A stretch of 62,994 bases of DNA, the filler included, from Reclinomonas americana ATCC 50394 (lineage: Eukaryota), in assembly GCA_048213135.1 (NCBI GenBank). It is 12 parts of 12 records of this genome, joined end to end, with 100 filler letters (N's around TTAATTAATTAA, not from the genome) between each part and the next. Parts side by side here need not be neighbours in the genome. Positions count along the whole stretch, not along the records: positions 8,483 to 10,467 come from AFZH01022010.1; positions 10,568 to 19,468 come from AFZH01022011.1; positions 19,569 to 24,109 come from AFZH01022012.1; positions 24,210 to 30,272 come from AFZH01022013.1; positions 30,373 to 35,988 come from AFZH01022014.1; positions 36,089 to 44,748 come from AFZH01022015.1; positions 44,849 to 53,861 come from AFZH01022016.1; 5 more parts are not named here. The stretch is one strand, 5' to 3'. The notes under the pieces were generated by a model, which ran no database searches, was not told the DNA's origin, and saw only the letters and a list, made by a program, of their open reading frames with translations. Below, one piece after another: positions 8,515-52,372 of the stretch. The stretch's first letter is position 1. Each line of letters opens with the position of its first letter. Made by a program: the position numbers and the translations under genes.

Positions 8515-9496
8515 TTACGAGGCCGCCAAGGCCGCACTGGAGCTCACGCTGCGCAACCTGGAGATGGACTACGTGGATCTGTACCTTGTCCACTGGTGCG
8601 CCGCGCTGCATGTCGCTCATCACGTCTCTCGTCTGATAACTCATTTCTGTGGGGTGACTGCGCAGGCCTGGCGCTGCCGACTCGTCGCTGTTGCGTGCAC
8701 GATTCTCCTCCTCGCACACCGACTGCTGGTGCCGACGGAGCTCACCACGTGCATGCAGGTCACCCGCGGAGGTCGTGGCGCTTCGTGCCGGCACGTGGCG
8801 TGCACTGGAGGAGGCATTCGAGGCCGGCAAGGCGCGCTTTATTGGTGTCTCGAACTACACCGAGAGGCATCTGGAGGAGTTGCTGAAGGCGCCGGCGACC
8901 AAGGTGCGCCCGGTGGTCAACCAGATCGAGGTGCACCCGAAGTGCTCGTGCAGGTGTGTTTTTTTCCTCTGCTTCCGTTGCGCACACCACAGCGGAGCAG
9001 CACTCAGCGTGTGTCGATCGCATATACACATACGTAGTGCTCTGCGTGAGTACTGCCGCGACCACGGGATCACGGTGCAGGCGTACTCGCCGCTCGGCGT
9101 CGGACAGTTGCTGATGTTTGGTCTCACCGAGATCGACGACATTGCTACCCGACACAACAAGTCGGTGAGTAACGCAGCAGCATGTCTCTCTCTCTCTCTC
9201 TCTTTTCTTCCTCCAGCATCTCTAACAGTACAATGCACTGCAGCCGGCGCAAGTTCTCATTCGGTGGAGCGTCCAACACGGCAATGTGGTGCTGCCGCGC
9301 TCGTCGGATGCCGGTCGAGTTGCGTACACTGCGGCCATGACTCAGAAGAACCAGCCACGGTGGCGCCTAACCCGCTTCGCAGATCGCCTCCAACCTTGAC
9401 GTTTTCGATTTTGAGTTGTCGGCCGAGGAAATGGCCTCGCTCGATGCCCTCAACGAAGACATGCACCTGGTCGCCGACCCCGACGCCGAGCCATAA
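8515..9496 (+). CDS. Aldo-keto reductase family protein, 5'-partial
   Basis: Spliced: LEMDYVDLYLVHWPG...GKARFIGVSNY...PVVNQIEVHP...VQAYSPLG...PAQVLIRWSVQHGNVVLPRSS...IASNLDVFDFELS. TAA at 9494-9496. Confidence 0.93.
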
Positions 9497-9505
9497 TAAG
9501 AGGAT

Positions 9506-10128
9506 TCACTGATCGTCGACACTGCCACTGCCACCACCAACGCCAGTGCCTGCGTCGCCACCCACATCCCAAGTGCCAATAAAGTGCGGTCGATGTACCC
9601 GATTCGCCTGCGCATCGTACGCCGCTCGCACATGCAGACCCACCTGCTCCCCCTCCGCCGTCACTTGCACCTGCACAGTCGTGAGCGACTCACACAGACA
9701 CACTGACTGCAGGCCGAGTACAACACACCGTGATCCACAGAAACAATCCAGCCGCACTCGGCGCCGACTCGACCACCGTCTTCCGCTCGACAAACACGGG
9801 GAATCTGCGTCCAAGCGAGCTTTCCACACGCTCACGAACCTCATCACACACACTCTGTCGCTCCGACGCACTCAACAGCGGCACCACAGCTGTACACAAG
9901 CAATGAGGACAGAGAGAGAGACACACAGAGAATGGAGACAACGGACGCGCCTGATGCTTGCGGGCTCGCCTGCACAGCTGCTGGCGAGGTTGGCGGGTGT
10001 GTCTTGCGCGAGCCCACACGCCGGCCACCTCTCTTGTCCACGGAGGGCGTGACCACCCATCGTCGCCACATGTAGCGCGCCGAGGCAAACAGGACGGGTA
10101 CCAGCGCAGCGGCCACTCCCAGTGCCAT
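9506..10128 (-). CDS. Divergent stefin/cystatin-like protein with N-terminal hydrophobic anchor (start uncertain: 10128, 10203 or 10265)
   Basis: Spliced: MALGVAAALVPVLFASARYMW...ERQSVCDEVRERVESSLGRRFPVF...AAGLFLWITVQVTAEGEQVGLHVRA. Resembles cystatin B ETQHIADQVRSQLEEKENKKFPVF...AGTNYFIKVHV...FVHLRV by eye. Confidence 0.5.
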
Positions 10129-10270
10129 GCGCACGCCGTCGGTTGGTGCGGAACTTGGCCGAGGTGGTGCAGGTGGAGCGATGCGCGGGAGACGAAGCTG
10201 CATCGGAGGGAAGAGAAGATAGAGTGGTGAAGAAGCAGAGGAATTTTCACAGCAGTTGCATCCATTATCA

Positions 10271-10429
10271 ATGAGCGAGGAAGGAGAGAAGGCCACAGGT
10301 GTGCGCATATGCGCTGTGTGGCGTGTGTAACCTGTTGCTCACTGTGTGTGTCTGTGTGCAGTGCACGCGGGCGCCGCTCAGGTTCTCTTTCTCGTCTGCA
10401 CACCGCAGTCATGATCACGATTTACACAC

Positions 10430-10467
<38 letters not shown>

Positions 10468-10666
10468 NNNNNNNNNNNNNNNNNNNNNNNNNNNNNNNNN
10501 NNNNNNNNNNNTTAATTAATTAANNNNNNNNNNNNNNNNNNNNNNNNNNNNNNNNNNNNNNNNNNNNGTCACTCGTGTGTGTCTGTGTGCAGTGCACGCG
10601 GGCGGCCGCTCAGGTTCGTCTTTCTTCGTCTCGCACACCGCCACGTCATGATCACGATTACTACAC

Positions 10667-10707
<41 letters not shown>

Positions 10708-11989: not shown

Positions 11990-14489
11990 ATGGCGAGCAG
12001 TAGCACAGACACAACAGACAAGTGTGGTCCGGGCCCATGCGACAGCGATGAGGTGATGATTGTCAGTGGAGGCGAGGCCTCAGGATCTGGATCACAGGCG
12101 CCTGTGCGACCCATGATCAGCGTGGAAGTGCGCTACCGCAAGGATGTTGCGTCTCTCCCCCCTCTCTTCCTCTCCTCATGTTCTCTTTCTGTGGGGGCGA
12201 GTGTGCGATCTTTTTGGTGTTGTGTACAAGTGCGCGGGAAGAGAGTGATCATCATCATTGCCGACAACTGCTTCTGTAGGTGTTCACACTCCACTGCCCC
12301 GCGGACTCGGATGTGTTCTTCCTCAAGAATCTGATCGAGGAGGTGTGTGTGCTGCGGTTGCTTGCTGATGCCAGGCAGAGTGATGTTGACGACCAGTTGT
12401 TTGTACACAGCTCACTGATGTGCCGCCTGAAGGGTTTGAGCTGTCTCTCTTCATCTGCTGTGCGCTTTACATGTTGTCTCACAAGTGCGTTTGTGCGTGG
12501 GCGCAGTCAAAAGCTCATTGGCCTCACCAAGGGCGCGCCACCAGCGGATTCGGTGCGCAAAACTTTAGCTGTTGTATTTGGTCGCTTCTCACCGCCACTG
12601 ACGGGAATCGCTCTGTCTGTGCAGGTGGCACTCACCGATCTGTATGCTCCGCCGCGCCTGCGAGTGATGCTCGTTGCGATGCACTCTTTCCTCCTTTCCT
12701 CGTGCCCCTTTGGTATTCACTCGGAAATCATCGTTTTTGCAGATTGGTGATCCCGTCAAGAGGGTGATTTTGGCGCCCGACGAGGTGGAGGGTGTGCCGA
12801 TCTTGCTGGATGACTTTGACATGGATCAAGTGATGTCGGGTTTGTGATGTTTGTGCCTGTGGTGGCGAGCATCGTTGCACCTGCTAACTGCAAGCATAGA
12901 GGAGGAGATCCGATCCAGAGGCGAGATCGAGCGCAGCCTGCAGGAGCGTGTGCGCAAGGTACGCCCAGAGAGAGGCAAAGAGAAGGAGTTTATTGTCACG
13001 GTGTGGTGACATTGCAAGCAGCTCGAGATCCACTTCATCACGCCACCGCGACCCGGACGAAAACTCCTGGTCCTCGACATTGGTTTGTTGTGTGACCGGT
13101 TTTACATCCCTCCCGTCGATATTGCATTCACTCTTTGTCTTCCACTCCCGCAGACTACACCATCTTTGACTGCAAGAGCACTGTGGAGATTGCATGTTGC
13201 GTTCGCCACGAGCACTGCCTTGTGAATGGCTGTGGTGTATTGATGTGTGTGAGTCGACGCAGTGTGCAAACGACCAGGCACCGATGAGCTCCTGTCGGCC
13301 GTGTACCCGTACTTTGACATTTGCTTCTGTTGCGAGAATGCACGGCAGCCCGGGAAGAGTGTGGCGTGGAATTCACCGCGCATGCATGCACAGGGAGTCA
13401 AACCAAGTGGACGTGGATCGAGGCCAAGCTCACGGAAATGGGACTGCTGACACCGGGCATGCCGTTCCGCGTTGGCTGGAGTTGCGTGCTGCGCCGCTTT
13501 CGCTGACAGTACCGAGTCCCATCTCTGACACACCGTTGTGTCCCCAGTTCTGGACCGCACCATGATGTTCCCGGTGACATGGGTCGACAAGCACGGCGAG
13601 GAGAAGCGACATGAGGTGTGCTTGCTCACTCACTCCTTTCGCGTGCTCCATCACAGTCTCATTAATGCCTGTTGCTCTCGTGCGCACAGGTCAAGCCACT
13701 GGAGGTATACTCGTCAAAGATTGATGACTTTGTGCTCTGGTGTACACTGACATGTAGCGTGCAGCTCATTTGGCGCAAACTCGGTCACTTGTACAGCAAG
13801 TTGCGGCAGGCGCAGCACGACATGCAGCACAGGGGGAGATTTGAGGGGCAGCGATGCATTCCTCACACTCCCTCGTGCAACAGAATTGGAGGGATCTCTT
13901 TTTCAGTCTCTCTCTTTCTCTCTCTCTCTGTTGCATCGCCCTCAGCGTCACTCCCGTTGCACTCGTATCACTGCTTCTCACTCCTCGTACATCGCCCCCA
14001 ACTTCCTCCAGTTTGTTTCACACAACTCCTGTTGCTCTTGCATCACTGCTTCTCTGCATCGCGCTTCGACTTCCACCTTACAGGTTCACATCGCATTCCT
14101 TTCCTCTCCTCCCTGGCATGTTCTTCGTTTCCTCAGCACTTCCCTCACCCTTCCTGCACTTTAGTTTGATTCGCACTCCCGCCACAACCCCTTCTCACAC
14201 ACACCGCAACAGAGAGAATACCGTGCACGTCGACGATCTGGCACGCAACTTTGTGCTCAACCCTGCCAACGGAGTTGCGTATTCTCCCTCTGCCACATCG
14301 TCACCCCTTCCCCCGCTCACTCCCCGGACACAGATCCGAGTCCAGTCGTACAAGGAGGCAGAGACACGGTACGCTGACGACCGCGAGCTCGTGCTGCTGA
14401 CCAAGTACCTCGTGCAACGCGTGGCCCCACTGGCCGACGTCACCAGTGTCAGCCACAAGAACTGGCGCTCTGTAGCCGAGGAACTGTGA
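11990..14489 (+). CDS. UBLCP1: Ubiquitin-like domain-containing CTD phosphatase
   Basis: 16 exons. UBL part LTDVPPEGQKLIGL; HAD motif RPGRKLLVLDIDYTIFD; also ICFWSQTKW, VKPLELIWRK and ENTVHVDDLARNFVLNPANG. Confidence 0.9.
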
Positions 14490-14635: not shown

Positions 14636-15509
14636 TTAGCCGTACAGCGCCTCACTGAGACCACGTATCCGGCGGGCGAGTTGAATGTCCTTGGGCTGAA
14701 TGGTGACACGCTTGGCGTGAATGGCACACAGATTTCTGCATTGTCGGAAAAACTCAGTCGCTGTGTGTTGTCGCAAGTTGATTGACGACAAGCCAAGAAA
14801 AAAACGCAACGAGTCCTCAAAGAGTCCCACCAAGTACGCCTCCGACGCCTCCTGCAACGCCTCCAACGCTCTCGCCTGGAAGCGGTAGTCCACGTGCGGT
14901 TGCACCGTTGCGGCAATCTCGCGAACGAGCCGCGCAAACGGCAGTCGTCTCATCAGCAACTCTGAGCTCTTTTGGTACTTGCGAATCTCACGCAGCGCCT
15001 TGGTGCCCGGTCGGTACCGCCGTCGCTTGCGCGATCCATCACCGCCAGCAGTACCAGCAGACACCGATGAGGCGCCACCAGGAGACATCAGACCGGCTGC
15101 GCAAAGAGAGAGAGAGAGAGTGAGTGACATCGCCATCTCGCACACACACTTTCGCTTTCGTGCACACGTACGCCTGCTCTCTCCTTTTCTCTCTCTCTCT
15201 CACTTTCTCCATCTCTTACTCAACGCCTGCTCGTCGAGCGTAGTGCACATCGGCAAGGAGACGGAAAGGCCAACGTGTCGCAGCATGTCACACACACGCA
15301 CTCACTTTCACACACACTCTCTTACACATCGACGTACCTCGCTCCAAGTGCTTCGACGACTTGCCCTTCTTCTTGTTCTTCTTGGAGGAGGCCGCAGAGA
15401 GGGCGGCCGACGAGGATGCAAGTGCCTTCTTCGGAACTTTGTCGCCCTTGTGTGCAGCCGACGACGCCGACGAGCCACCAACACGCTGACGACCACCGCT
15501 TGGAGGCAT
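14636..15509 (-). CDS. CENPA: Centromeric histone H3 variant (CenH3/CENP-A-like)
   Basis: Histone fold [18 protein letters not shown]...[11 protein letters not shown]...[28 protein letters not shown]. Long non-H3 tail, loop 1 two residues longer than H3, H3 Q68 replaced by A. Introns 15097-15337 and 14736-14810. Confidence 0.82.
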
Positions 15510-15789: not shown

Positions 15790-16414
15790 ATGGCTCTCCC
15801 GCGAGGACGATTCGTGTCTGTGCTGTGCGCAGTGGCATGCGCTGCGCTGTTGATGCTCGGTTCGTGTTTTCCGCGTGTGTGAGAAGTGAGAAAGAGTGCG
15901 AAAAAAAGAGTGTGTGACATGTGCGGAATACAGTGGTTTCGTCGCCGGCGCCGGCGCACTCGATTCAGCTGATCAACACGAGCACCATGGGTGTGGCGTT
16001 TTACCAGGCCGGATCCATGAATCCGACACCGCCACTGCTGGCATCGTCGGCCAAGGCGCTGCTCATGCTGGCGCCCTACAATGCCGCCTACCTGCTGGAG
16101 TCCTGTTGCGTAGTGTGTGTGCGCGACTCACGGGAGAGAGAGCGTGCATCTCATGCGCATGTTGTGTGTGCAGTGAACATCACGTCGCAGGCGCAAAAGA
16201 TTTCGTCGACGGACCTCCCGGATCTCATCAATCTCGACACGGGCAAGTGGCCGGCGCTGTTTGATCTGTGCGCACCTGACGAGTCGCTGGTGTGCGTCAC
16301 CTCGTCGAATGCGACGGGCATCTACTTGCGCCAGTTCTCTGTGGCCACGCTGCACGACGTTCGCAGGCCGCTGTTTCTCGATGGACAGCCCATCACTGGC
16401 GGTACGCCAAACCG

Positions 16415-16448
<34 letters not shown>

Positions 16449-19400
16449 CCGCCTCGCCCCCTCTTCTCATTCTCCTCGCAGTGCTAAACACCGTCAATCA
16501 GCATCTGCTGATCGTGGCCTCCAAGGGACCGACTGACCTGGTGCTGTACGATGTGGACCCGGCAACGTGGACGCTGGTGAAGACCTCGCCACTCGAGGCC
16601 AACGATGACCCACAGGTGGCTGGATTCAATCCACACACGTCTGACCTGCTGCTCGGCTCCTCCAAGGCCTCTGTCGGCATTGTGCGATACGCCACCGCCG
16701 GCGCCGCCGTCAAGCGTCTCGGCAATCTGGCGCTGCCGTCGGCATTGGTGTCGCCAATCATTGTCGACAGTGAGCATGACATGGGATACGCCGGCACCGG
16801 CGTCGGCACTCTGCTAAAGGTGAATCTCACGGCTGTGCCGCCGCCCCCGCCACCCAACAACACCTTGTCGGAGATGCTGCTCCTGGGCGACGACTACGCG
16901 GACTGGTATTCTGCGCCGGCCCCTCACTACTGGCAGTTGGATCTGCCGGGATACATTAGCGTCGGCGGCATCGACTTTACCAACGCACAGGGCTACTTCT
17001 CCGAGGCCGCCAAGTCGCCGATGTACATTGTCGACATGGTGACGTTCCAGAAGGTGAAAAACATCGACACGGAAAGTTACGTCCATCCACCCTCTCTCCC
17101 CTCTCTCTCCGTCCCTCCCTTCATCACACTCACTCTCTCGTGTCGCCGACAGTCACTGGCATTGTTGTTGGCCCCGCCGCCACGGCGATCACCGCACTGC
17201 ACCAACCACGCTTTATTGACACGTGGGAATTGTCGGCGGCTGATGTTGCGTGTGTCCCCCCCATCTGTTTCTTGTTGTGAGGGATTGAGACTGAGTTTGA
17301 TTCCGACTGCACCCAGCCGGTATCGAGCGTGACCTTTACGTCGACCACCAGCACCACTGCCGTGTTGTCGTGGACTGACCCCATTTACAACGGCGGACTG
17401 GCCATTACCGAATATCAAGTGGAGGTGTGTGTGTGTGTGTGTGTGTGAGCGTGCGTGTGCACAGTGATGGGATTCCTTGAACACTGACCGCGAATGAGTG
17501 CAGGTTTCGACCAAGAACACATTCCCGGTGAACACGACGCACGTTCCCGGCTCCGCTGCCAACCAGCTGTCGCTCACGAATCTGTTGGCGGGCACCAAGT
17601 ACTACGCCCGTGTGGCTCCAGTCAATGCCATGGGTCGTTCCGACTGGCTCACCCAGACGGGCGCCACCATTCGTGAGTCACTTACTTGTTGCCATTCCTT
17701 CTTTATTTCTGCTTGCGCGCTCTCATCGAGGTCAATACGTAGCGAGCACACCAACGACGCTCACTACGCCCACGATTGCCGACATTTCGGTGTCACTGTC
17801 ATGGACGCTGCCGGTCGACGGCAATGCGTTCCTCACGAACCACCTCGTGCAGTACTCTACATCGGCGACATTCACGAGCCCAGTGTCGATCCTCACCAAC
17901 TCCACTCTGCCGTCGTTCACCGTCACCAAGCTCACACTGGGAGTCAAGGTGCGTGTGTAGACTGCGTCTGACTGTGTATCCTCTTTGTCTCACACTCTGT
18001 TATGCAGTATTACTTCCAAGTGGCATCGATGAATGCCGGTGGTCGTAGTGCTTACTCCGGGAGCGTCAGTGCCACGACCAAGAGTGCGTACTCGACCGTC
18101 CTCAATGTCGCCCACTCATTTATTCGTTTCCTACTCACTCACTCACACTGTTGTTTCGTTTCGCAGCCGTCGTACCGGATCCACCGAAAAAGCCTGGTGC
18201 CACCAAGGTTCAGGGACACGCTCTGACGCTGACCTGGGATCCAGCACACGATGGTGGCACGTCCATCACACAGTACGCCGTGCAAGTATCGCAGTCGTTT
18301 GGTTTCTCCGACAACCTGCAGTTTGAGTCGACCATGTTTCGTGCCTCGTGCCGACTGTTTTTTTTTTATTATTATTTCCTCGTGTAGTACTTCCATTTTG
18401 ATCTCACCACGCAATGCGCAGTCCGATGCTGAACGTGACTGGTCTGTACGGCGGTACGCAGTACTATTTCCGAGTTGCCGCACGCAATGCTGTCGGACTG
18501 GGTCCGTATAGCTCGGCCTTGGGACCCGTGACGACACTTCGTTGCGTGTGGGGGGTCGTTCGTGAACCTGCCGCCGCCGTGTATTGACGGTCTGCTGTGC
18601 AGCCACTGAGCCGTCGGCGCCGTACAAGCCCTCGGTGTCACAGATCACGAGCATGGTCGACAGCCAAGTGCAATTTGTGTGGAACAAGGGCAACTCGACG
18701 GGCGGCTCGCCAATCTCGCAGTTGCGTCGTCGTTCACCTCGGGCTTCACTTGGCTTCGTCTTTCACTAACAGAAACACTTGCGTGCAGCTATCGCATCTC
18801 CTACCGCCGGAGGCCAGTGGTGGGCCAGGACGGGCAGGAGACCACGGGTTACGTGGACTCGACGACTCCCGACACTCAGCTGCTGGTGAGCGTGGAGGAT
18901 CTCGGTGGTGGAGCGTCGTTCTGGATATCCTCTGCCGTGTCGGCCGTCAACACACTCGGATCGAGTCCGCTGAGCCCCTACAGTGGCGAGGTCGAAGTCT
19001 TCACGGACGTGTCGCCGCCTGGCTCGCTCAACATTGGCCTCATCATTGGAGGTGTGACGCGCTCTCTGGACCTGCGCAGATACAGTACCCCTGCTCATCC
19101 GTATGTCGTGTGTGTACGCGCAGTGGTGGTTGGCGGTGTCGCGTTTGCGGCCATTGTGACGATTGTGATTGTGTATGTGGTTCGGCGCCGTCGCCGTGCA
19201 TTGGGCACCGAGCCCGACGAGCCGCAGCCGAAGCGCCAGCGCCGTGGACGAGTTTCGTGAAGTCGTCCGCCTCACTGCTCACACTCACAAAGTACACATC
19301 GGTGGCTAACATTGTGGCCCCCTTCCCCTGCAGGTCCGCCTCCTCGACGACACCGACGACGGAGTTGGCGACGGCTACGGCACCGCTGCGCCCTCCGCTC

Positions 19401-19468: not shown

Positions 19469-19568
19469 NNNNNNNNNNNNNNNNNNNNNNNNNNNNNNNN
19501 NNNNNNNNNNNNTTAATTAATTAANNNNNNNNNNNNNNNNNNNNNNNNNNNNNNNNNNNNNNNNNNNN

Positions 19569-24109: not shown

Positions 24110-24209
24110 NNNNNNNNNNNNNNNNNNNNNNNNNNNNNNNNNNNNNNNNNNNNTTAATTAATTAANNNNNNNNNNNNNNNNNNNNNNNNNNNNNNNNNNN
24201 NNNNNNNNN

Positions 24210-39000: not shown

Positions 39001-41740
39001 GGTCTTTTGCGGCTCCGAAACGTGGCGTGGAACCACGTGACGAATGCGTCGAGCTGCAGCCGCCGCAGTCTCCGAAGTCTCCTCTTCATCGCGCTCGTCG
39101 TCGGCGCTACCGCCAGCCGAGTACGAGTCGCCGTCTGACAGCGACCAAGCATCGTGGTGCGAGCTGGCCGGACTGTTCACAACACGAGTCAATCGCACAG
39201 CGAGGCGACACAGCAGCAACACAAGATACATACCTCAGTGGTTCAGCAGCTGGCGCCACCGGCGGTGGCGGTGGTGGCGCGTGCTTGGGCGCCAACAGCG
39301 CGGCAGGTACTGCGCCACCCTTGGGAATGACTTTGAGAGAGGGAATCCCCGCTGGCACTGGTGCGGGCGGAATCGGAGGTGGGGCGACACTGCTGGCTGC
39401 AAACGAGGGCGGTGCGCGAGGTGGTGGTGCGGCGGCGGCGGTGGCGGCTGCTGCTGGAGGAGGACATGTGTACATTGTAAGACGACTCGCATGCACATTG
39501 TGAGGTGCTTGTATCACTCACCAGTCTTGACAGCAGCAGCGGCTGCAGTCGAGGTCTTTCCACGCGCATCGTCACCGCCACTTCCACTATCGCTGCCGCC
39601 GCCGTCGTCGTCGTCGTCGCCACCACTGCCAAAGTCATCGAATTCAAACGAATCACCGCCACTTCCGTCGCTCCATGCGTCGTCCTCGAACGTCGGCTTT
39701 GGCGGCGGCGGTGGTTGCCCCTGAACAGCGGCAGCACATGTTAGACTCCGATACATGTTGCAATCGGCACACCCCACATGATCACACACCTTGACGACTG
39801 CAGGCTGCAGAACGCGGTGCGGAGGAAGGCGCTCTGGTTGCACAAAGTGCAAAATGTCGTACGCCATGCGCTCGGTGAAGAACTCCTTGCAAATGTCCTG
39901 CCATTCGCGCGACCGCATCTCCCACGCCTCCATGCCCGTCTGTGGCGACGCAAACAACAGTCTGTGACTTCCCACTTCCCTTCATCGGACCATGGCAAGG
40001 GGGGGGGGGGGAATAACGCAACTCTTGCTCGAATGTCATTGCAGACTTGCAAAACGTGCCGACGAGAAATCACATGGGCTTTCTGATAGTTCTCCGGGGG
40101 CCACCATTTTGCCTCGGTAGCCGCTGCACGAATGGATTAATTACGAGCGTACGCGCGCGCATGCACTGGCAACGAGTGATGGGGCGACGCAACTCGCAAA
40201 CACCAAATGTGACCATTCCGACTCGATGAAATCAGGGATTGGCAGCCACTGTTGACCGGCGCTCGGCGCGGGTTTCTCGGTGACGAACCTAATCTTCAGG
40301 TCACTTCGCAGATTCCGCATGAAGGACACCTCGCCACGTGTTCGTGCCGACACGGCCGGCGGCGACTGTGGCACAATGGGGCATGAATACAACTGCAAAA
40401 AAACGGTGTTGGGGGGCGTGCACGCAACAAGCAAGCCAGTGCGCGGCGTGCCGCCCGCTGCGGAGCCCAAACGATGTGCAATCGTGCCATCTTCGCCAAC
40501 GATGCGCGGAGTACGACGCGACAGCGGTGCACTCGCCGCCAGAGCCGACGGAGCCAGTGGAACTGTGCATTGGTGGGGCGCGTGAGATGCAGACAGAGAA
40601 AGACAACACTCAGAAGGAGGATGAGGCATGTAACTGGACGACGCCACGCCAGCGGGGCCCACCAGTGGTGCCTTGGGCGTCTTTGGAGTGCGCAACGAGG
40701 CAGACGAGGCCGCAGCGGTCGCTGCTGCCGCCGCTGCTGCTGCTTCCTCGCCCATGATAAGCTGCGGCAACTTGTTCAGCGTGCTGTTGCGACGCAGGCC
40801 GAGAACGGCCGGCGGCTTGACGGTTTCCGGCTGACCGATACTGCAAGCACACAAACAAAAAAAAAATGTCAGGAACGAGTCTGCACCGACGGTTGTGTCC
40901 ATCGGTCTGGGATGCGCACGAACCCATCCTCATCGCTCGACGTGTGATACGAATCCAAACCAAACTCCATGTCGGAGGCAATCGAACGCGACGAGGCGGC
41001 AGCAGCAAGAGGCGCAGCAGCCGTCACGGCCTTGCCGGAGGGCATTGGTGACTCGGGGAGAGGCGGGGCCGGCATCTGTGTTACGATGAGACGCAGATCG
41101 CTTGCCACACTCCCACCACGTCGACGCAACGTCCTTGTTGGCGCGGTCAATGACAGCCCCGAACAAATTGATGGAGGTGGAGTCGGCGGAGAGCAGTGGA
41201 ATGCTGGGGATGGTTCGCGACAGCGTCTTGGTGCCTTGCGGCGTGGGAGACACGGTGGACACCTGGAAGGAGTCGTCGTCGTGGTCTTCGTCTCGATGAC
41301 CACCGTCGCTACTCTCGCTCGTGTTGTCGAGCGAGTACACCAAGTGGTCGTCACGTGCCGACAGATCGTCAGAGTCACCGCTGGTGTTGTGGCCTCGCTG
41401 ACGCGCTGGCTGCGGCGACGCATATGCACCGGCAGCCGCAGCCGCCCCCGCCGTGAACGGCGGTCGTCCACCGGCTTGTGGGAGCAGCTCGAAGAGTGTC
41501 ACAAACGCTTGCGACGCAGTGACCGGAATTGCGGGGTCGGAGAGCTCACGAGTGAGTGATTCGACCTGTTCAGCCAACGACTGCGACACGTTACTGGTCA
41601 TCGGGCCTTCGCGACCCACCGAGGCCACGCAGTCGGCCTCCAGCTCCACCAAGCGCGCCAAGTACAGCACGATGCGCAGTTCACGGAACTACGAGCACGC
41701 AAGTGAGCAACTGACGGTGGTGGGGGAATGATTTCTGCAC

Positions 41741-41779: not shown

Positions 41780-44748
41780 ACAGACCTGCGACCGCAGCTG
41801 CTCCCGAATCGGCCGCAGCACATCCTCGTGTCCCGCGTTGATCGTCACCGATCGCATGTGTCCCGAAAACGACAACAGCACTCCCACATGCAAGTGGGCC
41901 AGGTGCAAGCAAATTTCGCGTGCGGACGGCTCGTCACCACGACCGCGACCTGACAACAAAACGCATGACACCGTGATAAGCTCTCCAGCAACAACCGACG
42001 CCTCAAAAAGTTAACGCACGTTCTGTGTCGGTAGCGCGGGAGACGCCAGGCGTGGCCAGCGACAGGCACTGCACCATTTGCAGGTAGTGCAGCGACAGGT
42101 AGTGACTGACATACATCTCCATGCTCAAGAACGGACAAATGGCCACCGGCAGTGCAAAGAGATCGGCCACCAAATTGAGACCCTGTGACAACAAGCGGTG
42201 AGTCGGTGTGCGTGTGCGTGTGTGTATGTAAGCAACCGAGCCGCACCTCGCACTGCATGGAAACCCAGGCCTTTGCCGCCGAGATACGCGGATCCACACC
42301 CGCAGGCAACGCATCGGCATCGCTGCCGAGAGTGTCATCGTCCATGCTGTCTGCCGAATGACGATCGAGACTCTCAGCATCCTCATCGATGCCGTTGGCA
42401 GATCGGCGACCGGCTGCCGCTCGCGGTCGATTGACGCCGACAATGGTGGGAACCAGGTCGCGAGAGATCAGCACATTCAGCGCGCCCTCGACCGGATGCA
42501 CCAGGAAGTCCAACTTTAGCACGTACTCCGACACAGCAGCAGCCACCCGCGCGCGACGATTCTCATCCAGTGGCCGTCCGTCAAAGCTCCGACACGCCAT
42601 GCGGTAGTTGGTGGACATGACCGACACAATCATCTGCGCCCAGCGTTGGTCAGACGACAGTGTGATGGATAGATGCACCTGAGCAAACAATAGACACCCG
42701 CACCCGATAAAAGTCCAGGATGCGAATGACGTGGTCACGCAGAGCAAAATCGAGATCGGTCGACCGCTGCCACACACGTTCACCCCACACAGCAAGCAGC
42801 GCACGTCGCATAACCTGGGCCAAGGTTGTTGCCGCCACTGCTGCATTCGGGTCCAGCTCGGCCTCAAAGCCGCGTCCGTGCGGCGCAGCCGACGCACCCA
42901 CGGTGGTGGGAGCGACCGCCGGCGGCACATCACCGGCATCGAGTGAGTCATCGTCGTGCATGTCTGCATCACACGGTCAGATGCACTCAGACAAACGCGC
43001 ACACACGCACACACTGCATAATCGAGGGCGAACCAGGCTCCGAGTCATCGTCTTCTTCGAGAATCAGTGCCTTCGCCACATCCAGGGAAACCATGACGTA
43101 CGTGGACAGCCAGTTCACTGGACGTGCTGTCGCTGCCATCGATCGACCAGTAGCCGGACTGTTGGATCGTGAGTGTGAGAATGAAACGCCCGTCACGCAA
43201 GTGCGCAGAAAAAAACGAAACTTTGCCGCATTCCAACTCGCTCCGCCCGGCGCCGTCGTGAACGTGTTCCCCGAAGCCGTCAACATGTCGCACATCACAT
43301 CAATGACCACCGGATGGCCGGAGCACACCGCGTAGCTGCAGAGAGAACTCATTGTCTCGAGAAGGAAGTGCATGGCCTGCACGTGGCACCAGTCTGGTCG
43401 AGAGACTCGCACAAGACATTCTTGCACGCGCACCAGGAGGCGCAAGAAGAGGTGCACGGTCTGCGAGCAGACCGTGCGCGAGTTTGACAGTGCCGTGTGC
43501 AGGTACGATGAGAGCACCTCCAAATGTCTGGTCACTTCGGTCCACGCGCCCACCTACAACGAGACAAGCCGTGCGGTGAGTGCCCATGTCAGAGTGTGTG
43601 CGTGCGCACCACGCAAACAAACCGACGGCTGTGCCTCCAGTGTGGCCAACACGGCTTTCAGCGAGCCGGCAAGCCGCCACAGGAAACGATTGGAGGAGGA
43701 CGATGATGACACGAAGATCTCGGTCGGCGGTGCTATTAGAATATCACGCAAGATTGAGTTGACGTTGGAGTGTATCGCCACGCAAAAAAAGCATCAGCGA
43801 CGCAACACAAGGCGGCAAGATTGAGCTGGTACATGTTGCGATAGACAGGTTGCGGCGCCGACATGGAGAGCGGATTGACACCGAGTGAGTTTTGTCGCGC
43901 CACAGTGCGTGGTCGCTGACTCAACGCGAGACCTATTCGTGCACCGGTGTCAGCCAGAATTGCCTCGACACAGAGCGGCGGGCGAGCTGACGCAACTGGT
44001 CGGAGTCGGCGCCTGGTCGGAAGGACTGGAGGGCGATTCGCGACCGCTGACAGGGCCAACAGAAACACCCGAGAGCGACAGTGCGGCGCTGTTCGGTGGT
44101 CGGTAGGTGGAGGCTGACGAGCGCGGCTTCCGTGAACTTGACTGCGGCCCATCCGGCATCCGCGCCGAGTACACCCCACGTGCCGAGGAGTCTTCTGGGC
44201 TCATGAACAACGCGCTGCCACCGCCACCACCTCCTGCACCAGCGCCAATGACACCAAAGCCCCCATCTGGTGATGATGACGGCCTCGTGAGCACGCTGAC
44301 CATGCGCTCTGGTGCCGTTGACGGAAGGGCCAACATCGATCGCGGTTCAGCAGCCGGCGCCGTGAAATGCAGAAGAATGCGATGAGCGAATTGACGTGCC
44401 CTCTGTGCCCAGGCGTTAGCAACGGTGAAAAACGACAACTGCAGAGCAGCGAGAAATGCACCAGCGAGAGTAGGCCAGCAATGTTTTGCGCCTGCATGTC
44501 TCGCTCGCGCACAGTCGGGATCAACATCGGGTGGTTCCAGTTGTACTCAAAGTCCGGGCGCAGCTTCCGCAGGAAATAATCGTGGAACGAGAAGTCGTGA
44601 GCGGGGTGGTGACCGAGACTCATGTGTCGCAGACGACGGACTGCGTGCGAGTGCACCATAAGCGACGCGAAAAAATCAGCCACTCAACACGAGTGCACAC
44701 CACGCACCTTGCTTCTGGAACACGACGTGTGGCGCGAGAGCGGCGTGT
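36089..44748 (-). CDS. Very large multi-exon Ser/Thr protein kinase (kinase domain ~36150-37350), partial at both ends
   Basis: VAAGAFGSVY, LVVKVMD, IIHFDLKCDNIML, VLADFGES, RGTECIKSPEM and SDVWSLGCLLYEI. Upstream exons can be chained in frame through most of the contig. Confidence 0.85.
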
Positions 44749-44848
44749 NNNNNNNNNNNNNNNNNNNNNNNNNNNNNNNNNNNNNNNNNNNNTTAATTAA
44801 TTAANNNNNNNNNNNNNNNNNNNNNNNNNNNNNNNNNNNNNNNNNNNN

Positions 44849-46027: not shown

Positions 46028-49000
46028 ATGAGTGCGCGCCATGGTGACGACGAGGACAAGGCGAGCGTGGAGTCGCTGTTGCGGCGATTGCAGGTGGTGA
46101 TGTTGCGGTGTCCGGTGGATGCACGGACGGGGCAGTTTGAGCGCGCTCGCGATGCCTCGCTGCATGCGTTTCTGTTGCGCGTCTTGTCGGCGCGCTTGGC
46201 TGTCGCCTCCTCCTCCTCCTCTTCGTCGTCGTCGAGTGGCGGTGGACGCGTGCAACGCACAGGTGTGTGTGCATGTCTGTGTGTGTGTGTGTGCGTGCGT
46301 GTAGCGATCTCACGTGTGTGTGAGCAGACGAGGCTGGATCCACTGACGCGTATGTGATGGGCGAGATCATCAAGAAGAGGCGTTGCGTTCGCCTTTGCTC
46401 ACGTGCTGGGCGGCTGGTTGTGCTGACGGATTCGCTTCCACACGTGCAGTGGCACAACAGGGACGACCGGCGGCCGCGGTGGAGTTCTCAGATGCATTTC
46501 GGCGACTGGTGGCGCTGCCGATTCTCAAGCGCAAAGGACCGCTGCTGCATGTGCTGTCCACGGTGGCGCGGTACAATGCGGCCGTGCAGCATGGCGTTGA
46601 GGTGTGCAAGTGGAGAGTGCGTCTGTGCCCTTGCTGTGTTTTTCTTTGCTGACAATGCCGACAGCCGGCACACACGGCGTTTGCGGATCTGCTGTTGAAG
46701 GACGTGCCGTCTGCTGCAGCTGGCTCCGGCAAGTTGTCGTCAGCGGACAAGACAGTGGCGGTGGCACCGGGCACGCGAGGCGATGGCGTTGCATTACCGC
46801 CGTCGTCGTCGTCGTCGTCGTCGCCACCCGACGATTTTCTGCAGGGCTTTTCCGATTCTGAGTCACCCGAGCACGGTGAGTCTCGTGGTGCGACGAGGCG
46901 AGGGGTCATCGTGGCACTCACCTCTTGTTGCACAACACAACACAGAGTCGGTGCGCGTATCCGAGTTGGTGCTGCTGCGCGACATGATGTTTGTGCTGCA
47001 AGGCATCGACGGGCGGCGGATTCGTTTCGACAGCGGAACGAATGCGTATGAAGTCGATAGCGCCGTGTCCGTGCCGCCCACTTTCCACGCCATGATTCGT
47101 CGCATTGGCGAGCTGGGCTGGCTCTACCGAAGGATTTCGACATTTACGCATGCCGTCAGTGCCTCGGCGACCACGACCGGACTCGTGGCGCAGAGCTTCT
47201 GCTCGACGGTGCAGCAAGAATTGGCCGCCTACTACCGCAGCATTGCCATTTTGGAGACGCAGATGAACTTTGAGGGTTGCGTCTCCAGTGTGCCGATGCA
47301 GCGTGCGAGTTGCGTGTGCGAAAACTGATCTTCTTCTGCCTCTCTCTCTCTCTCTCTCAGCCGCCAAGGTGCGGTCGGGCGAGCAACCTGTACACTATCT
47401 GTCATTGCGAAAGTTGGTGGTGTGGATGGAGGAGCCGCTGCAGAGGCTGAAACTGATTGCCGTGTTGGTCGATGCGTGTGCGGAGCTGCATGGCGGCGAG
47501 CTGGCATCACGAGTCTACGAGTTCCACAAGCACGGCGATCCATTTGTACAGAGCTTTGTCGACAAGATCCTCCATCAGGTGTGTGGCGACTGGGGAAAAA
47601 AAGAGTGGCGAGTGCCCTGCAACTCATTTCCGTGCGTCAAGGTGTGCGTTCCGATTTTGAACATGATCCACCGATGGGTGTTCGAGGGCACGCTGGAGGA
47701 TCCGTTTGACGAGTTCTTTGTGGCCTCCAACCCCAACGTAACACCCAATCGACTGTGGCACGACAAGTACTCTCTGCGCGAAAAGATGCGACCTTCGTTC
47801 ATTTCCGAGGCACTGGCACAAAAGGTGGCGTGACTCGCGGGACTCTGCTTCGTGGTGTCTCTCCCACACTCACTTCCAACATGTGTTTGCCTGCCAGATC
47901 TTGTCCACGGGCAAGTCCATTAACTTTATTCGCCACTGCATGCGCGACTCGGAGTGGCTGATGGACTCGGGCGCCTCCACCACGGCACAGCAGGGTGCGA
48001 AGACTGCCACCACTATCGATGTCTTGTTGCCAATTGAGCGCGCTCATTTGTGTTGATCAGCGCTGGCGGCTGGCGACTGGACTGTGCTGGAGGGAGTGAC
48101 TGATCAGGCTGCCGATATCACCAACCGGCACCTCATCACCACGATCTTCTCAAAGTACAAGATCGGCGCCCACATTCTCGCCCTCAAGCAGTACATGCTG
48201 TTGGGCCAGGGCGACTTTATCCAGTACCTGATGGACATTGTCGGGTGAGAACGTGGGAAGAGGGCGAAAGGGAGATTTCGCGAGCTCACATCGGCACCGC
48301 CTCGCAGACCCGAGCTGAACAAACCGGCGAGCGCCGTGGAGCGACACAACTTGCCGGGCCTGCTCGAGTCAGCAATCCGAGGCTCCAATGCACAATTCGA
48401 GGACGAGAATGTGCTCGACCGGCTGGATGTGCGGCTGCTGCAGGTCAGTCCTCGGTTGTTTCGTCGCACCTGCGATCGCACACTCACCAAGTTGCGCAGG
48501 AATCCCCGGGCGACGACGGCTGGGCCGTGTTTTCGTTGGACTACAAGGTTGACGCTCCGATCGACACCATTCTGACCACAGAGACGATGAACACGTATCT
48601 GCGCATCTTCAAGTACCTGTGGCGCTTCAAGCGCGCCGAACACTCGCTCAGTTCCATCTGGAGCCGGCACATGTCGCTGGCGCACATGCTGGTGCTGCCG
48701 CGTGACGCCGACCTTGCAGCGCTCCTGCATCGTTGCCGTCTGTTGTGCCATGAAATGGCCCACTTCACCTCCAATCTCGGCTACTTTGTCATGTTTGAGG
48801 TGTGGCGTGTGCGCACTCGACACACTCTCGCCGACGCCACGTATCTCACTGCTGCTGTTTGCTGCGCAGGTGTTGGAATGCTCGTGGGAGGAACTGCAAC
48901 GCTCCATGCGATCGGCACCGGATTTGGACGCCTTGCTAAAAGCGCACAACCAGTACTTGGATAGCATTGTGGAGCGCTCGCTGCTGGGCGACGACAAGGA

Positions 49001-49430
49001 TGTGGAGGCGTTGCGGACGTTGATTACCCGGATTTTGGACCTGATCCTCCAGTTCAGATACGCCCAGGAACGCGCGTACATGGACCTGGATGCGGAACTG
49101 AGTCGCCGATCGGGCTCCGCCGGTCAGGAGAGCGGCAGTCGGTGGGGCAGCACCAAGACACTGGCAGAGGAACAGGCGGAGCAGGCGCAGTCGGTAAAAC
49201 TTGTGCGCTCGATTGCACAGAACGCGCGCCTGACACGCGAAGCCTACTCGGATCTGCTGCACAATCTGATGGATCTCTTGTCACGCGTCAGCTCCCACGA
49301 CGACATGCTCAAGTACTTGTCCTTCCGTTGCGTAGTCTGTCCGTCGTTGTTAACAAGCGCGACGTGTCTCACCTGACGTGTTTGAGCAGGTCTCGACTTC
49401 AACGAGTATTACGACAACGGAGGCTCGTAG
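46028..49430 (+). CDS. TUBGCP3: Gamma-tubulin complex component 3 (Spc98/GCP3)
   Basis: LLRDMMFVLQGIDG, GELGWLY, GLVAQSFC, HGDPFV, LEDPFDEFFV, ALKQYMLLGQGDFIQYLMD, GWAVFSLDYKVDAPI, FEVLECSW and LSFRLDFNEYY. Confidence 0.95.
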
Positions 49431-49521
49431 GCGCGCTCTGTCCCTTCCCCGCTCCGCAGAGGTGGCAGAAAAAACCGAATGAAAAAACTGTTTGTGATGG
49501 GAAAAATGGCATGCTCCGAGT

Positions 49522-50698
49522 TTACGACATGTAGTTGAGGGGATCGAGTCTGTGTTGGTGGGATGGTGAGGGAGGCACACACGCGTGTCGACACACACAC
49601 ACACACATCGACAGACCTGTACATGTTGCCGTACTGCAATGTTGGAGTCTGGCCGCTCTCGCACTCGACCACGGTGACAGCCATGGCTGTGGCAAAGCAG
49701 ACGTGAGCCAAGCACACACACACACGTTGCGCTCGTCGTTTCACGCAACTATCCTCATCCTGAATGTGGTACGTCACCGTCACCACACTGGTGCGCAGGA
49801 AAAAGTTGAGGACCGCCGTCTGCGACGGCTGGTGGAAACGACCGGAGCACGCCACGCCATTGTAGCTCCACAGCAACTGCGTGTCGCCGCCCTTGCCAAT
49901 CGTCACCTTCATCTCGTAGCCAATCGTTGTGTTGTGCAGACCCTTGCCAAAAGACCAGTACCTACAAGAGGAAACGTGTCAGCCCGACGAGACACGGAAA
50001 AGAAAACACCAAAGGCGGGTCGGCACGCAACAGGTACCGCGTGGTCGGCGATGTGTCCATCTTGCGCACTTCCTCAATCTGCGCCACCGAGATGGTCAGC
50101 AGTGAGAAGCGCAAAGGAGAAGGAGAAGGAGAAGCACAAGGCGCAACTGTCACAATGGAGTTGGTGGATCGCAAATGCTGCCACGTCCCACCTGATCGCA
50201 ACAACGATTAATGATGATCACGGCAAATGCACAGTAGTGTGATCACTCTCTCTCACCAATCTCGCGGAACTCCAAGTTGCGCTTCCACGGACCAAGCAGG
50301 AACGAGGGAAAGTCGGTGCCACTGCCATACACACGCACACAAGTGAGCATATGTGTGTGTGCCTGTATATGTGTGTGACTGTGTGTGGATTACCTCGAGG
50401 GCGGGAGTGAGGAGGCCGCAGGTGCAGCAGCCGACGAGCCTCCCGCACCTCCTGCTGCAGCAGTCGCCGAGGCACCTGCGCCCGTAGTGGTGGTGGTTGT
50501 TGTTGTGGATGTCGCAGTCGCAGTGGACGACGCATCGGCGGCGGTCTTGCCCTCGGAGAGTGATCGCGAGTGGGGCGCCACTGTGGAGGAGGCCGAGGGT
50601 GGTGCAGAGCCGGAGGCGGCCAGAAGCCGAGCAGAGCTGTTGAAGCGACTGTTGCTGCCACCGGGGGCGCGGGAGGAACCAGGGAACGCGGGGTCCAT
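49522..50698 (-). CDS. Hypothetical protein: low-complexity N-terminus plus ~150-aa beta-rich domain
   Basis: Seven exons chain in frame: FPSFLLGPWKRNLEFREIGGTWQHLRSTNSIVTIEE...YWSFGKG...TAVLNFFLRTSVVTVTYHIQDEDTMAVTVVE...QYGNMYRLDP. Confidence 0.7.
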
Positions 50699-50772
50699 GT
50701 GTGTGCTCTCTCTCTAAACGCAATCGCTGGTGTGTATGTGACACACGCAGGACACTAGTGCACTGAGGAAGA

Positions 50773-52372
50773 ATGGACGGGTCTGTGAGTCTGCAGGCAC
50801 TGGCGTTGACCAGTATCTCTGGCATGGCCACTGGCATCGGTGTGTGTGTGTGTGTGTGTGCGTGTGAGCGAGTGTTGTCTCCTCTCTTCGTTGCTCATCT
50901 GTGATATGTCGGCGGCCAAGGATCGTGTGCGGTGTTGGTGTTTGGTGAGGATGCGCATGGAGTGACCAGTGGACGCATGTTGGCCTTGGCGGCGGGTGTG
51001 ATGCTGCAGGTGAGGCACACATAGTCGGCGTGTCATTCTCTGTATCTCTGCCACTGATGGAGACATGGGGACAGGTGTCGGCCTTTGATCTGCTTCCCGA
51101 GGCTGCCGAGGTCTGCTCTTCTCCTCTCGCCTGCTCACCTCTTGTGCTGTTGTAGCTCACTGCACCTGTCAGGTCATTGGCTGGGCGGAGACGCTGGCTG
51201 GCGTTGCGTTCATTCTGCACTGTGCACATGCACGGACAAGTGTTTGACTTTCCCCCCTGCGCACAGTTCGTTGTCGGCTGTCTGTTGTACTTTGTGCTGG
51301 AGCGACTGGTGCCGGAGCCGGACTTGAAGGCGTTTGGAGCGCAGCTGTTGCCGACGCCGTCGGCCAGTGGCGCTGCGGTGTCGGCGTCGATGACGGAACG
51401 AGTTTTGTCTCGTCTTCTCCTCTCTCTGAAGCTGCTGCGTGCTGATATCGCCTTGTCGACAGCGCCGTCTGCTGCGCACGGGTTTTATTGTGGCGCTCGT
51501 GCTGGCGGTTCACAACTTTCGTTGCGTGGTTGTTCGTGGCACTGTGTTGTGAGATGCCGACGACTGAGAAGGGTTGCGTGCGCAGCCGAGGGAATCGCCG
51601 TGTACATTAGTTGTCTCAAAGGTTTGTGCCGACCGACCCGCCTGACCGTGCGTCGCGCTGCGTGCACTAACCGTGGTGTACGTGTGAACAGGAATGCGCT
51701 TCGGCCTGACCATCATGGTTCGTGTGCTTTTCCTCGCCGGCACCCCTTTTTTTCTCAACCAACGCGTCTGTGCTGCAGATTTCCATCATGCTACACAACA
51801 TTCCAGGCGTGTTGCTCGCTGCGTTCCTCTTCTTTTCGAGATCGATTCTCATTGCGTGGTGTTGCAGAGGGCGTGGCTGTGGCCTGCAGTATCTACGCCG
51901 GCAGTGGCAAGTTACGCGTGCACTGATCCTCTTCAGCGCCACGCCAATTCTCACTGCCGTTGCAGCAAGAAGCAGGCCATGTTCTGGTCGATCCTCACTG
52001 GCGTAGCGGAGCCGGTGGGAGCGCTTCTATTTGCCCTGGTCTTCCAGTTCTTCATCTCGGAGCACATGGTGTCCTTTGTGCTCGCCGTGGGTACGAGCTC
52101 TCGCGCCGCCATGTGTCACTTGCGCGGAGCGCGTCACTCACTCCTCGCACAGTCGCCGGACTCATGTTCACCATCAGCCTCGCCGAGTTGATCCCCACCG
52201 CCAGTCGCTTCATCGGCACCACGGTGAGTTTGGTGATGATTTTTTCACTCGCTCTAAAACGAAACCTGACAATCCTTGCACTCGCCGACAGCCGCTGATT
52301 GGATTCACCATTATCGGCATGGCTCTCGTGTTCGCCTGCTCCCTCTTCTTCGATCTCATGGAGATCCATTGA
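50773..52372 (+). CDS. ZIP family (ZupT/GufA-type) zinc/iron transporter
   Basis: SGMATGIG, LAAGVML, LAVHNFPEG, IMLHNIPEGVAVA, LTGVAEPVGA and VAGLMFTISLAELIP. Confidence 0.92.

Follow-up and report, generated by a model that had tools for sequence, protein, structure and literature searches.

Does the last base of an exon depend on how far the G-T-rich block of the following intron lies from the cut? The question is raised by a stretch of 62,994 bases of DNA from Reclinomonas americana ATCC 50394 (the window, composed of 12 joined contigs), in whose eukaryotic part, positions 1-53861, many introns begin with GTTGCG. The introns of this part belong to two donor classes. Class 1, about three quarters of the introns, has the form (A)G|GT-G-Y-G-Y, with a degenerate intron side and a strong preference for G at the last exon position (-1). 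Class 2, represented by 42 introns (~24%), has the form N|GTTGCGT. This equals GTGCGT, the best class-1 word, plus a T inserted after GT, which places the GCGT block one base further from the cut than in class-1 GTGCGT. The data show that both classes exist, that -1 G is coupled to a G at intron position +5 and lost with a G at +6, and that intron architecture is common to both classes.

The introns were called with a hidden Markov model (HMM) of gene structure that combines coding periodicity, obligatory GT and AG, the donor 4-mer at positions +3 to +6, the acceptor at positions -8 to -1 and a branch motif CT[ACG]A[CT]. This model takes no exon bases at the donor, and the -1 base is therefore free of circularity. 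It replaced an earlier HMM based on GT and AG only, which gave 185 introns over both strands (20 with GTTGCG) and was too noisy. The signal-aware HMM called 168 introns in the eukaryotic part, 37 of them with a GTTGCG donor and 131 with another donor. A stricter high-confidence subset of 92 of the 168 was defined by a length of 45 to 150 nucleotides (nt), a YAG acceptor, a branch motif and a well-scoring gene.

At position -1, the 37 called GTTGCG donors display A 13 times, T 11 times, C 10 times and G three times, whereas the 131 other donors display G 88 times, C 16 times, A 15 times and T 12 times (-1 G in 3/37 vs 88/131, Fisher p=5e-11). After three corrections and the addition by hand of five donors, -1 G is found in 3/42 GTTGCG introns (A15 T13 C11 G3) and in 90/130 others (p=3e-13); in the high-confidence subset, the values are 1/18 and 54/74 (p=1.5e-7). 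The two donor classes described in the initial annotation are thus recovered. The three GTTGCG donors preceded by G (34016, 38969 and 47276) are the same in both analyses; for the interval 8690..51585, to which 42 GTTGCG donors had been attributed (A14 T14 C11 G3), our count is 40 (A14 T12 C11 G3). The ordinary donors had been described as degenerate and mostly preceded by G, which agrees with the HMM calls, and the donors given as examples, including 3399 and 17673, are present. The contingency proposed there, between the -1 base and the position of the intron G, was computed on the gene-model introns of the window and confirms the association: -1 G is observed in 67/85 introns with G at +5 and not at +6, and in 9/54 introns with G at +6 and not at +5 (p=3e-13).

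The word GTTGCG is itself enriched and strand-specific. The two strands together hold 99 copies, whereas shuffled sequences hold 63.9 +/- 8.4, and 99 was reached in 0/100 shuffles. Among the 42 GTTGCGT heptamers of the eukaryotic part (both strands), 35 are intron starts. The other seven comprise two sites antisense to exons, three within introns and two sites of a kinase gene region. The first of these two, T|GTTGCGT at 36111 (-), belongs to the kinase gene, where the contig ends 23 bases after it; it is probably a further class-2 donor lost to the gap. The second, C|GTTGCGT at 37123 (-), is on the sense strand within an exon of the kinase domain and is apparently unspliced; the heptamer alone is therefore insufficient.

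The absence of G before class-2 donors can be read as avoidance or as lack of preference. With a null derived from codon positions in the predicted exons, 12.5 G are expected among 39 class-2 sites and three are observed (P=2.6e-4). When GTTGCG sites that are not donors are taken for comparison, -1 G is present in 6/44 of them and in 3/42 donors (p=0.48; a version of this comparison with 49 sites gives p=0.73), and G is rare before GTT generally in the DNA of the window (16.5% before GTT and 12.7% before GTTGC). We conclude that the class-1 preference for G is absent from class 2. The "H" assigned to position -1 corresponds to a lack of constraint, and whether G is avoided depends on the null chosen; a requirement for a base other than G is not supported by the comparison with the non-donor sites.

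Homology allowed us to detect errors of the HMM. Among 43 ordinary donors called without -1 G, three are wrong: the true site of 8942 is 12 nt downstream (cag|GTGTGT), that of 26785 is agg|GTGAGT at 26803, and that of 25136 is a GTTGCGT at 25182. Five GTTGCG donors outside the HMM set were added by hand, 14810, 25182, 49749, 50031 and 50147, all on the minus strand. The signal-aware HMM had read through or misplaced 14810 and 25182, and had dropped the gene 49522-50350, which holds the three others; in this gene the earlier HMM had called 49749 correctly and misplaced 50031 and 50147. Since the errors found either removed class-1 G|GT donors or missed class-2 donors, they weakened the contrast between the classes and did not create it. 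At least 4 of the 42 GTTGCG donors (14810, 25182, 50031 and 50147) were missed or misplaced in this way, and such introns will likewise be overlooked or wrongly placed by gene finders whose training relied on G|GT donors. The HMM has probably also read through one more in-frame intron at 13700-13770 (+) in a UBLCP1-like gene (gag|GTATAC...GTGCAG), to judge by the human protein.

All 42 class-2 introns have GT-AG termini. Ten of their junctions fit homologues or the coordinates of Pfam profiles, and retention of the intron breaks the reading frame in 28 of the 37 called by the HMM. Pfam searches on single short exons gave no match for 12 of 26 exons. A protein derived from expressed sequence tags (EST) of the same species and crossing a class-2 junction was found neither with the aldo-keto reductase (AKR) exon, whose homologues reach at most 66% identity, nor in a representative search with exon 49751-49960, whose homologues reach at most 54%. 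The check at transcript level concerns four class-1 introns only, those of the TCTP gene at 26480..27613 (-), whose spliced translation matches the EST-derived protein P0027 (EukProt: Reclinomonas americana) at 155/156 residues with no gaps; the eukaryotic contigs must accordingly stem from this jakobid or from a very close relative. These four introns all have -1 G: aag|GTGTGT, atg|GTGAGC, cgg|GTAAGT and agg|GTGAGT (donor 26803). A second TCTP EST form labelled Reclinomonas americana is 91% identical over the last exon and may represent a paralogue, an allele or a strain.

Apart from the donor, the classes resemble each other. The median length is 69 nt in class 2 and 68 nt in class 1, the acceptor base -3 (C/T) and the base composition are equal, and single genes contain introns of both classes in alternation. 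The branch motifs CTCAC and CTGAC (CTSAC) are common to both; CT[ACG]A[CT] is found 8-45 nt before the acceptor in 58% of class-2 and 71% of class-1 introns, and in 17% of random AG. Intron phase seems to differ somewhat, phase 1 being more frequent in class 2 (16/33 introns) than in class 1 (32/106). A separate branch or acceptor type for class 2 was rejected on the basis of the shared features. A shifted cleavage (HG|TT...) was rejected by reasoning, as it would leave the mRNA unchanged only where a G begins the next exon, the case in 10/33 class-2 introns.

The class-2 introns are distributed as follows (position, strand, last exon base with donor, length). An adenylate-cyclase-like gene contains 7285..7355 (+, A|GTTGCGG, 71 nt), called by the HMM, whose retention introduces a stop and a frameshift. 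In the aldo-keto reductase gene, 8690..8758 (+, T|GTTGCGT, 69 nt) and 9319..9382 (+, A|GTTGCGT, 64 nt) were both called by the HMM: removal of the former gives the loop length of the homologue P0039, and the latter yields a gap-free alignment with seven AKR homologues across the junction, its retention causing a frameshift. HMM calls whose retention leads to a frameshift are 12146..12279 (+, T|GTTGCGT, 134 nt), in the UBLCP1-like gene, 12673..12742 (+, C|GTTGCGA, 70 nt), 13196..13262 (+, T|GTTGCGT, 67 nt), 13329..13393 (+, T|GTTGCGA, 65 nt) and, with a stop in addition, 13481..13547 (+, A|GTTGCGT, 67 nt). The long intron 13800..14212 (+, A|GTTGCGG, 413 nt) is supported by the HMM and the retention test, and its downstream exon matches positions 110-128 of the NIF profile weakly; 14274..14333 (+, A|GTTGCGT, 60 nt), also an HMM call, is in frame, with splice signals as its only support. 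In a histone H3-like gene, 14736..14810 (-, C|GTTGCGT, 75 nt), missed by the HMM, separates Pfam Histone positions 22-97 and 99-122, the split codon being position 98. A surface protein with FN3 domains contains the HMM-called 16105..16173 (+, T|GTTGCGT, 69 nt). Retention of 17245..17316 (+, T|GTTGCGT, 72 nt; HMM) introduces a stop, and 18541..18602 (+, C|GTTGCGT, 62 nt) and 18721..18788 (+, A|GTTGCGT, 68 nt) are supported by the HMM and the retention test. The introns 19619..19693 (-, C|GTTGCGT, 75 nt) and 20018..20089 (-, T|GTTGCGT, 72 nt) are HMM calls.

In the sirtuin gene, 25106..25182 (-, T|GTTGCGT, 77 nt), for which the HMM took the wrong donor 25136, is flanked by exons matching Pfam SIR2 109-148 and 150-180; the second sirtuin intron, 25322..25403 (-, A|GTTGCGC, 82 nt), has the support of the HMM and the retention test. 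The HMM called 29042..29095 (-, A|GTTGCGT, 54 nt) in a gene for a G-patch protein. The HMM and the retention test agree for 29907..30022 (+, A|GTTGCGT, 116 nt), for 32438..32506 (+, A|GTTGCGT, 69 nt), of which the AAG acceptor is doubtful, for the long intron 32586..32971 (+, C|GTTGCGC, 386 nt) and for 33080..33153 (+, C|GTTGCGT, 74 nt), in a gene of a family-C G-protein-coupled receptor, where the downstream exon corresponds to 7tm_3 positions 10-62. The acceptor of 34016..34084 (+, G|GTTGCGT, 69 nt) was corrected from 34111, as exon 34085-34174 matches 7tm_3 positions 174-203 from its first residue. The HMM called 35851..35940 (-, T|GTTGCGT, 90 nt), 40366..40428 (-, T|GTTGCGT, 63 nt) and, in a low-complexity part of the kinase gene, 38886..38969 (-, G|GTTGCGT, 84 nt), of which retention gives a stop. 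Supported by HMM and retention test are 39940..40022 (-, A|GTTGCGT, 83 nt), 40124..40193 (-, A|GTTGCGT, 70 nt), 41076..41130 (-, C|GTTGCGT, 55 nt), 43733..43806 (-, T|GTTGCGT, 74 nt) and 43933..43996 (-, A|GTTGCGT, 64 nt).

The GCP3 gene contains three class-2 introns. The first, 46382..46449 (+, C|GTTGCGT, 68 nt), is supported by the HMM and the retention test. For the second, 47276..47360 (+, G|GTTGCGT, 85 nt; HMM), the spacing to GCP3 homologues favours the donor 47276; another in-frame GTTGCGT, A| at 47309 (+), is located 33 nt downstream, and the two are possible alternative donors 11 codons apart. For the third, 49327..49389 (+, C|GTTGCGT, 63 nt), tblastn with GCP3 homologues shows that ...LSFR|LDFN... 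is contiguous only after removal. In the small conserved gene 49522-50350, eight homologues reject the alternative donors of the HMM: 49687..49749 (-, A|GTTGCGT, 63 nt) aligns gap-free with the eight, the alternative donor of 49962..50031 (-, T|GTTGCGT, 70 nt) would add eight residues present in 0/8 homologues, and the class-2 model of 50079..50147 (-, A|GTTGCGC, 69 nt) regains two residues found in homologues. A gene for a ZIP transporter contains 51203..51266 (+, C|GTTGCGT, 64 nt), which has, like 51521..51585 (+, C|GTTGCGT, 65 nt), the support of the HMM and the retention test. Finally, in the PRA1 gene, 53124..53189 (-, T|GTTGCGT, 66 nt) is flanked by exons matching PRA1 positions 20-51 and 56-96, the four residues between them being positions 52-55.

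Beyond GTTGCG, seven donors of the form H|GTT-NN-G were detected: GTTACGT, GTTACGC, GTTTCGT (twice), GTTTTGT (twice) and GTTGAGT. One of them, A|GTTACGT, begins the intron 17076..17152 (+); the six others are located at 5527 (+), 18336 (+), 34842 (+), 43221 (-), 51402 (+) and 51911 (+). These donors mirror the ordinary GT-NN-G donors with one T added. One further donor of this form has -1 G (GTTGAGG), whereas the GTT donors with G at +5 (GTTCGT three times and GTTTGT three times) all have -1 G. Among the sequence data, this contrast within the GTT donors is the strongest indication that the need for an exon G is decided by how far the G-T block lies from the cut. In class 2 the T at +7 is kept in 35/42 donors.

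We compared the donors with the small nuclear RNAs (snRNAs) that read the 5' splice site. The canonical U1 end is ACUUACCUG, and the U6 box is ACAGAGA. Duplexes were computed with RNAduplex for the donors and for 600 exonic GT decoys, using the canonical U1 11-mer AUACUUACCUG as printed in PMC4856993. The area under the curve (AUC) is 0.745 for class 1 and 0.296 for class 2; the mean duplex energy of class 2 is -1.5 kcal/mol, against -2.9 kcal/mol for the decoys, and no frame, bulged frames included, lifts class 2 above the decoys with canonical U1. With the U6 box, the AUC of class 2 is 0.27, again below the decoys. Because class 2 pairs poorly with both textbook U1 and U6, the near-invariant G at +4 and C at +5 are left unexplained by the textbook snRNAs, and this misfit is the most unusual part of the finding. 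When 16 variants of U1 at positions 5-6 were scored, only G-U and G-C reached an AUC of at least 0.69 for both classes. With the hypothetical G-C U1, the optimal duplex of GTTGCGT is in the shifted frame: G+1 faces C9, U+2 is unpaired and U+3 to U+7 are paired.

The explanation that we favour, tentatively and as a possibility that falls a little short of probable, is that both classes are ordinary GT-AG introns of one U2-type spliceosome and that class-2 donors are read by a shifted U1 register used as a major mode. U1 would pair with the TGCGT block one base out of its usual frame, so that G+1 would lie opposite the U1 base that normally faces exon position -1. With G+1 taking the place of the exon base, the last exon base would have no pairing role and, as we propose, would drift to background composition. 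The cut would still be set at GT by later steps, involving U6, U5 and Prp8. As textbook U1 pairs badly with GTTGCGT in any frame, the U1 of this organism is predicted to read G-C or G-U, and not U-U, at positions 5-6. That offset pairing is no rare rescue but a standard mode, used by about a quarter of the introns and made possible by a changed U1 (G5, C/U6), or by a second U1 complementary to GUUGCGU, is a more specific proposal that we hold to be rather doubtful; if true, it would represent a natural co-evolution of U1 with a whole donor class. The idea that one recognition frame serves both classes thus receives a mixed answer. The mirrored H|GTT-NN-G donors, the retained +7 T, the absence of a -1 G preference and the shifted optimum with G-C U1 speak for it; a bulged T fits equally well, and the poor pairing of canonical U1 with GTTGCGT in every frame means that one frame for both classes needs a non-textbook U1.

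Several observations weigh against a shifted register. At the Rfam gathering score, the window contains no snRNA gene, the only match being a bacterial tRNA, so that the U1 pairing is something we infer; at E<=1, the scan of 1-53861 also gives no snRNA, and its 19 low-complexity matches resemble microRNAs (miRNAs) or long non-coding RNAs. In a shifted frame one would expect A at -1 and C at -2; among 39 sites, A is only mildly raised (13 vs 7.5 expected) and C is not raised (11 vs 11.1 expected). Class 2 is also far narrower than class 1, with GCG at +4 to +6 in 42 of the 50 GTT..G(+6) donors, while GCG at +3 to +5 is found in 12/88 class-1 donors with -1 G; this narrowness could equally reflect a separate reader. 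A T bulged at +2/+3 would give equally the same sequences. In Ostreococcus lucimarinus, a strict donor exists despite single snRNA copies in O. tauri, and strict GC-rich donors therefore need not imply a changed U1. Lastly, the support for all class-2 junctions comes from gene models and homology rather than from RNA.

Among the alternatives, a plain compensation with no frame shift appears somewhat unlikely. GTTGCGT would be a very strong "right-handed" donor, with its T bulged or with contacts to U6, U5 or proteins, and pairing to the exon would be dispensable, which would be the seesaw already known at 5' splice sites, where the exon side and the intron side balance each other. The background-like -1 base of class 2 is consistent with this, anti-correlated exon-heavy and intron-heavy classes are known in many species (PMC11732430), and a bulge +2/+3 register has 68 predicted human sites (PMC4856993, Table 3). 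However, the known intron-heavy class //GURAG has G at +5, a position held by C in class 2, whose G is at +6; a bulged frame would leave -1 pairable with U1, and the G preference then expected to some extent is not seen; canonical U1, moreover, scores class 2 above the decoys in no frame, even bulged. Less probable still, and in our view unlikely, are two distinct readers, namely a second U1-like snRNA (or another factor) complementary to GUUGCGU for class 2 beside a standard U1 for class 1. The near-invariance of class 2 over seven bases with indifference to exon bases, as in U12-type donors, its pairing with canonical U1 below that of decoys and the high proportion of GTTGCGT heptamers that are donors would all agree with a dedicated reader, and for Ostreococcus a reader of this kind was likewise considered by Irimia & Roy (PMC2483917). 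Yet branch motif, acceptor, length and composition are equal in both classes, which alternate within genes, and the GTT-NN-G variants suggest a tolerance like that of class 1.

Two further alternatives concern the nature of the introns themselves. If class-2 introns were introners, i.e. copies of a mobile intron element with its own GTTGCGT start, the fixed 5' word and the narrow length range around the median would be explained; but class-1 introns have the same length, and an all-against-all blastn of the 168 introns gave only one weak class-2/class-2 pair among 26, the matches inspected consisting of GT or CT repeats. The intron bodies thus lack the similarity expected of introners, no repeat family was found, and this origin, which we consider very improbable, was rejected. 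An artefact of gene modelling, in which the GTTGCG sites would not be real donors, is barely credible: the HMM is wrong elsewhere and class 2 lacks RNA data, but the ten junctions fit homologues or profiles to the residue, retention breaks the frame in most of the HMM-called introns, the motif is enriched and strand-specific, and the known errors of the HMM lowered the contrast between the classes.

The shifted U1 register that we favour for class 2 has precedents. A shifted register (Roca & Krainer 2009) and bulged registers (Roca et al. 2012) were established at human 5' splice sites (Tan et al. 2016, PMC4856993; see also the review PMC9311317), and the validated non-canonical registers together represent ~1.5% of human 5' splice sites (PMC4856993). 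The proposition of the initial annotation that the pattern reveals a new compensation mechanism is therefore not sustained, as both the shifted U1 register and the bulged +2/+3 register are published for human sites in the same article. The human shifted register resembles class 2 by an extra base after GT, a pairing block one base deeper, a G+1 that replaces -1 G and a cut at GT. As in the human register, class-2 donors pair only weakly with U1 when the frame is canonical; a better pairing in the +1 frame is absent with canonical U1 and present with the hypothetical G-C U1. The human shifted block is AAGT, whereas that of class 2 is GCGT, unfit for canonical U1, and the ~1.5% of human sites contrast with the class-2 word in ~24% of introns here. 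What is new is the scale, the single fixed word and the misfit to canonical U1 and U6; the register mechanism was already known from humans. In a bulge +2/+3 register, GT-T-GCGT would amount to GTGCGT plus a looped-out T, which leaves the -1 pairing available, while class 2 shows no G preference.

Two general classes of 5' splice sites, AG//GUNNN and NN//GURAG, have been described (PMC11732430). As in these U5-heavy and U6-heavy classes, an exon-heavy and an intron-heavy class are here anti-correlated within one genome, the -1/-2 positions standing against the intron side. The intron-heavy class of R. americana is nevertheless a single heptamer with G at +6, not //GURAG with G at +5, and agrees poorly with the U6 box; class 1 keeps -1 G and +5 G together (83% of the donors with -1 G have +5 G).

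In Ostreococcus lucimarinus, introns outside chromosome 2 have a strict GTGCGTG donor and those of chromosome 2 a degenerate GTRNGT (Irimia & Roy 2008, PMC2483917). The same article discusses, without resolving it, the possibility of different spliceosomes or changed snRNAs, and mentions only single snRNA copies in O. tauri. Both genomes thus combine a strict GC-rich donor word with degenerate donors, and a change of snRNA is conceivable in both. The two sets of Ostreococcus are found in different genome regions and differ in branch-site strength, whereas here they alternate within genes and share branch site and acceptor; the word GTGCGTG, moreover, is without the extra T.

Class 2 also recalls the U12-type introns by an invariant extended donor indifferent to exon bases. 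The U12-type consensus comprises the donor RTATCCTT and the branch TCCTTAAC. Class 2 does not have this donor, its branch motif is the class-1 CTSAC, and the Rfam scan of 1-53861 detected no U11 or U12 snRNA; the donor GTTGCGT and the class-1 branch motifs do not agree with a U12-type membership. The GT-AG termini, the restored frame and the branch motif upstream of a YAG acceptor are those of U2-type introns.

Among the literature matches listed, none describes nuclear splice signals of jakobids or a GTTGCG donor pattern, and the motif words retrieved primers, aptamers and miRNAs. For the nuclear genome of the jakobid Andalucia godoyi, the article PMC7050145, its supplements apart, reports few introns and no donor classes. 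A metagenome scan with a GCP3 exon gave two distant loci (63% identity over 24 residues) and no relatives for a comparison of orthologous introns. It is an open topic how the spliceosome copes with diverse donors and at which step the cut is fixed (U1 registers, U5/U6 or LUC7 classes). If a shifted register is true, a free-living, intron-rich protist in which about one intron in four begins with a single shifted word, and in which the same genes also contain degenerate AG|GT donors, would constitute a natural system with a large sample; non-canonical registers have been documented mainly for the ~1.5% of human sites. The model makes a sharp prediction on the 5' end of the U1 gene or genes of the organism.

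Concerning the window itself, each linker between contigs consists of TTAATTAATTAA, which provides stops in all frames, with 44 N on either side; contigs side by side need not adjoin in the genome. The linkers occupy positions 2142-2241, 4907-5006, 8383-8482, 10468-10567, 19469-19568, 24110-24209, 30273-30372, 35989-36088, 44749-44848, 53862-53961 and 60491-60590. The eukaryotic part has a GC content of ~57% and many short introns. The contigs beyond (53962-62994) contain intron-free bacterial genes, among them an MFS metabolite/H+ symporter, an RND efflux adaptor subunit, a phosphoribosyl-ATP diphosphatase and an RNA pyrophosphohydrolase, as well as the bacterial tRNA at 61340-61413, detected at the Rfam gathering score; they probably come from food or contaminant bacteria joined to the contigs of the protist.

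The contig ends 10320-10467 and 10568-10710, which flank one linker, are nearly identical over ~120 bases, with (CT)n at the end, and differ by short indels, as if an overlap had been left unmerged or two alleles were represented. Microsatellites of the types (CT)n and (GT)n are frequent within introns, for example at 9180-9205, 10680-10705 and 47335-47358, and are the cause of the spurious miRNA-like Rfam matches and of the blast matches between introns. Finally, one gene pair is present as diverged duplicates on two neighbouring contigs (1-340 vs 2584-2970, and 1069-2114 vs 3476-4905); it is composed of a small open reading frame and a repeat protein of ~330-476 amino acids, which we take by eye to be ankyrin-like; unlike the other genes, these have few or no introns.

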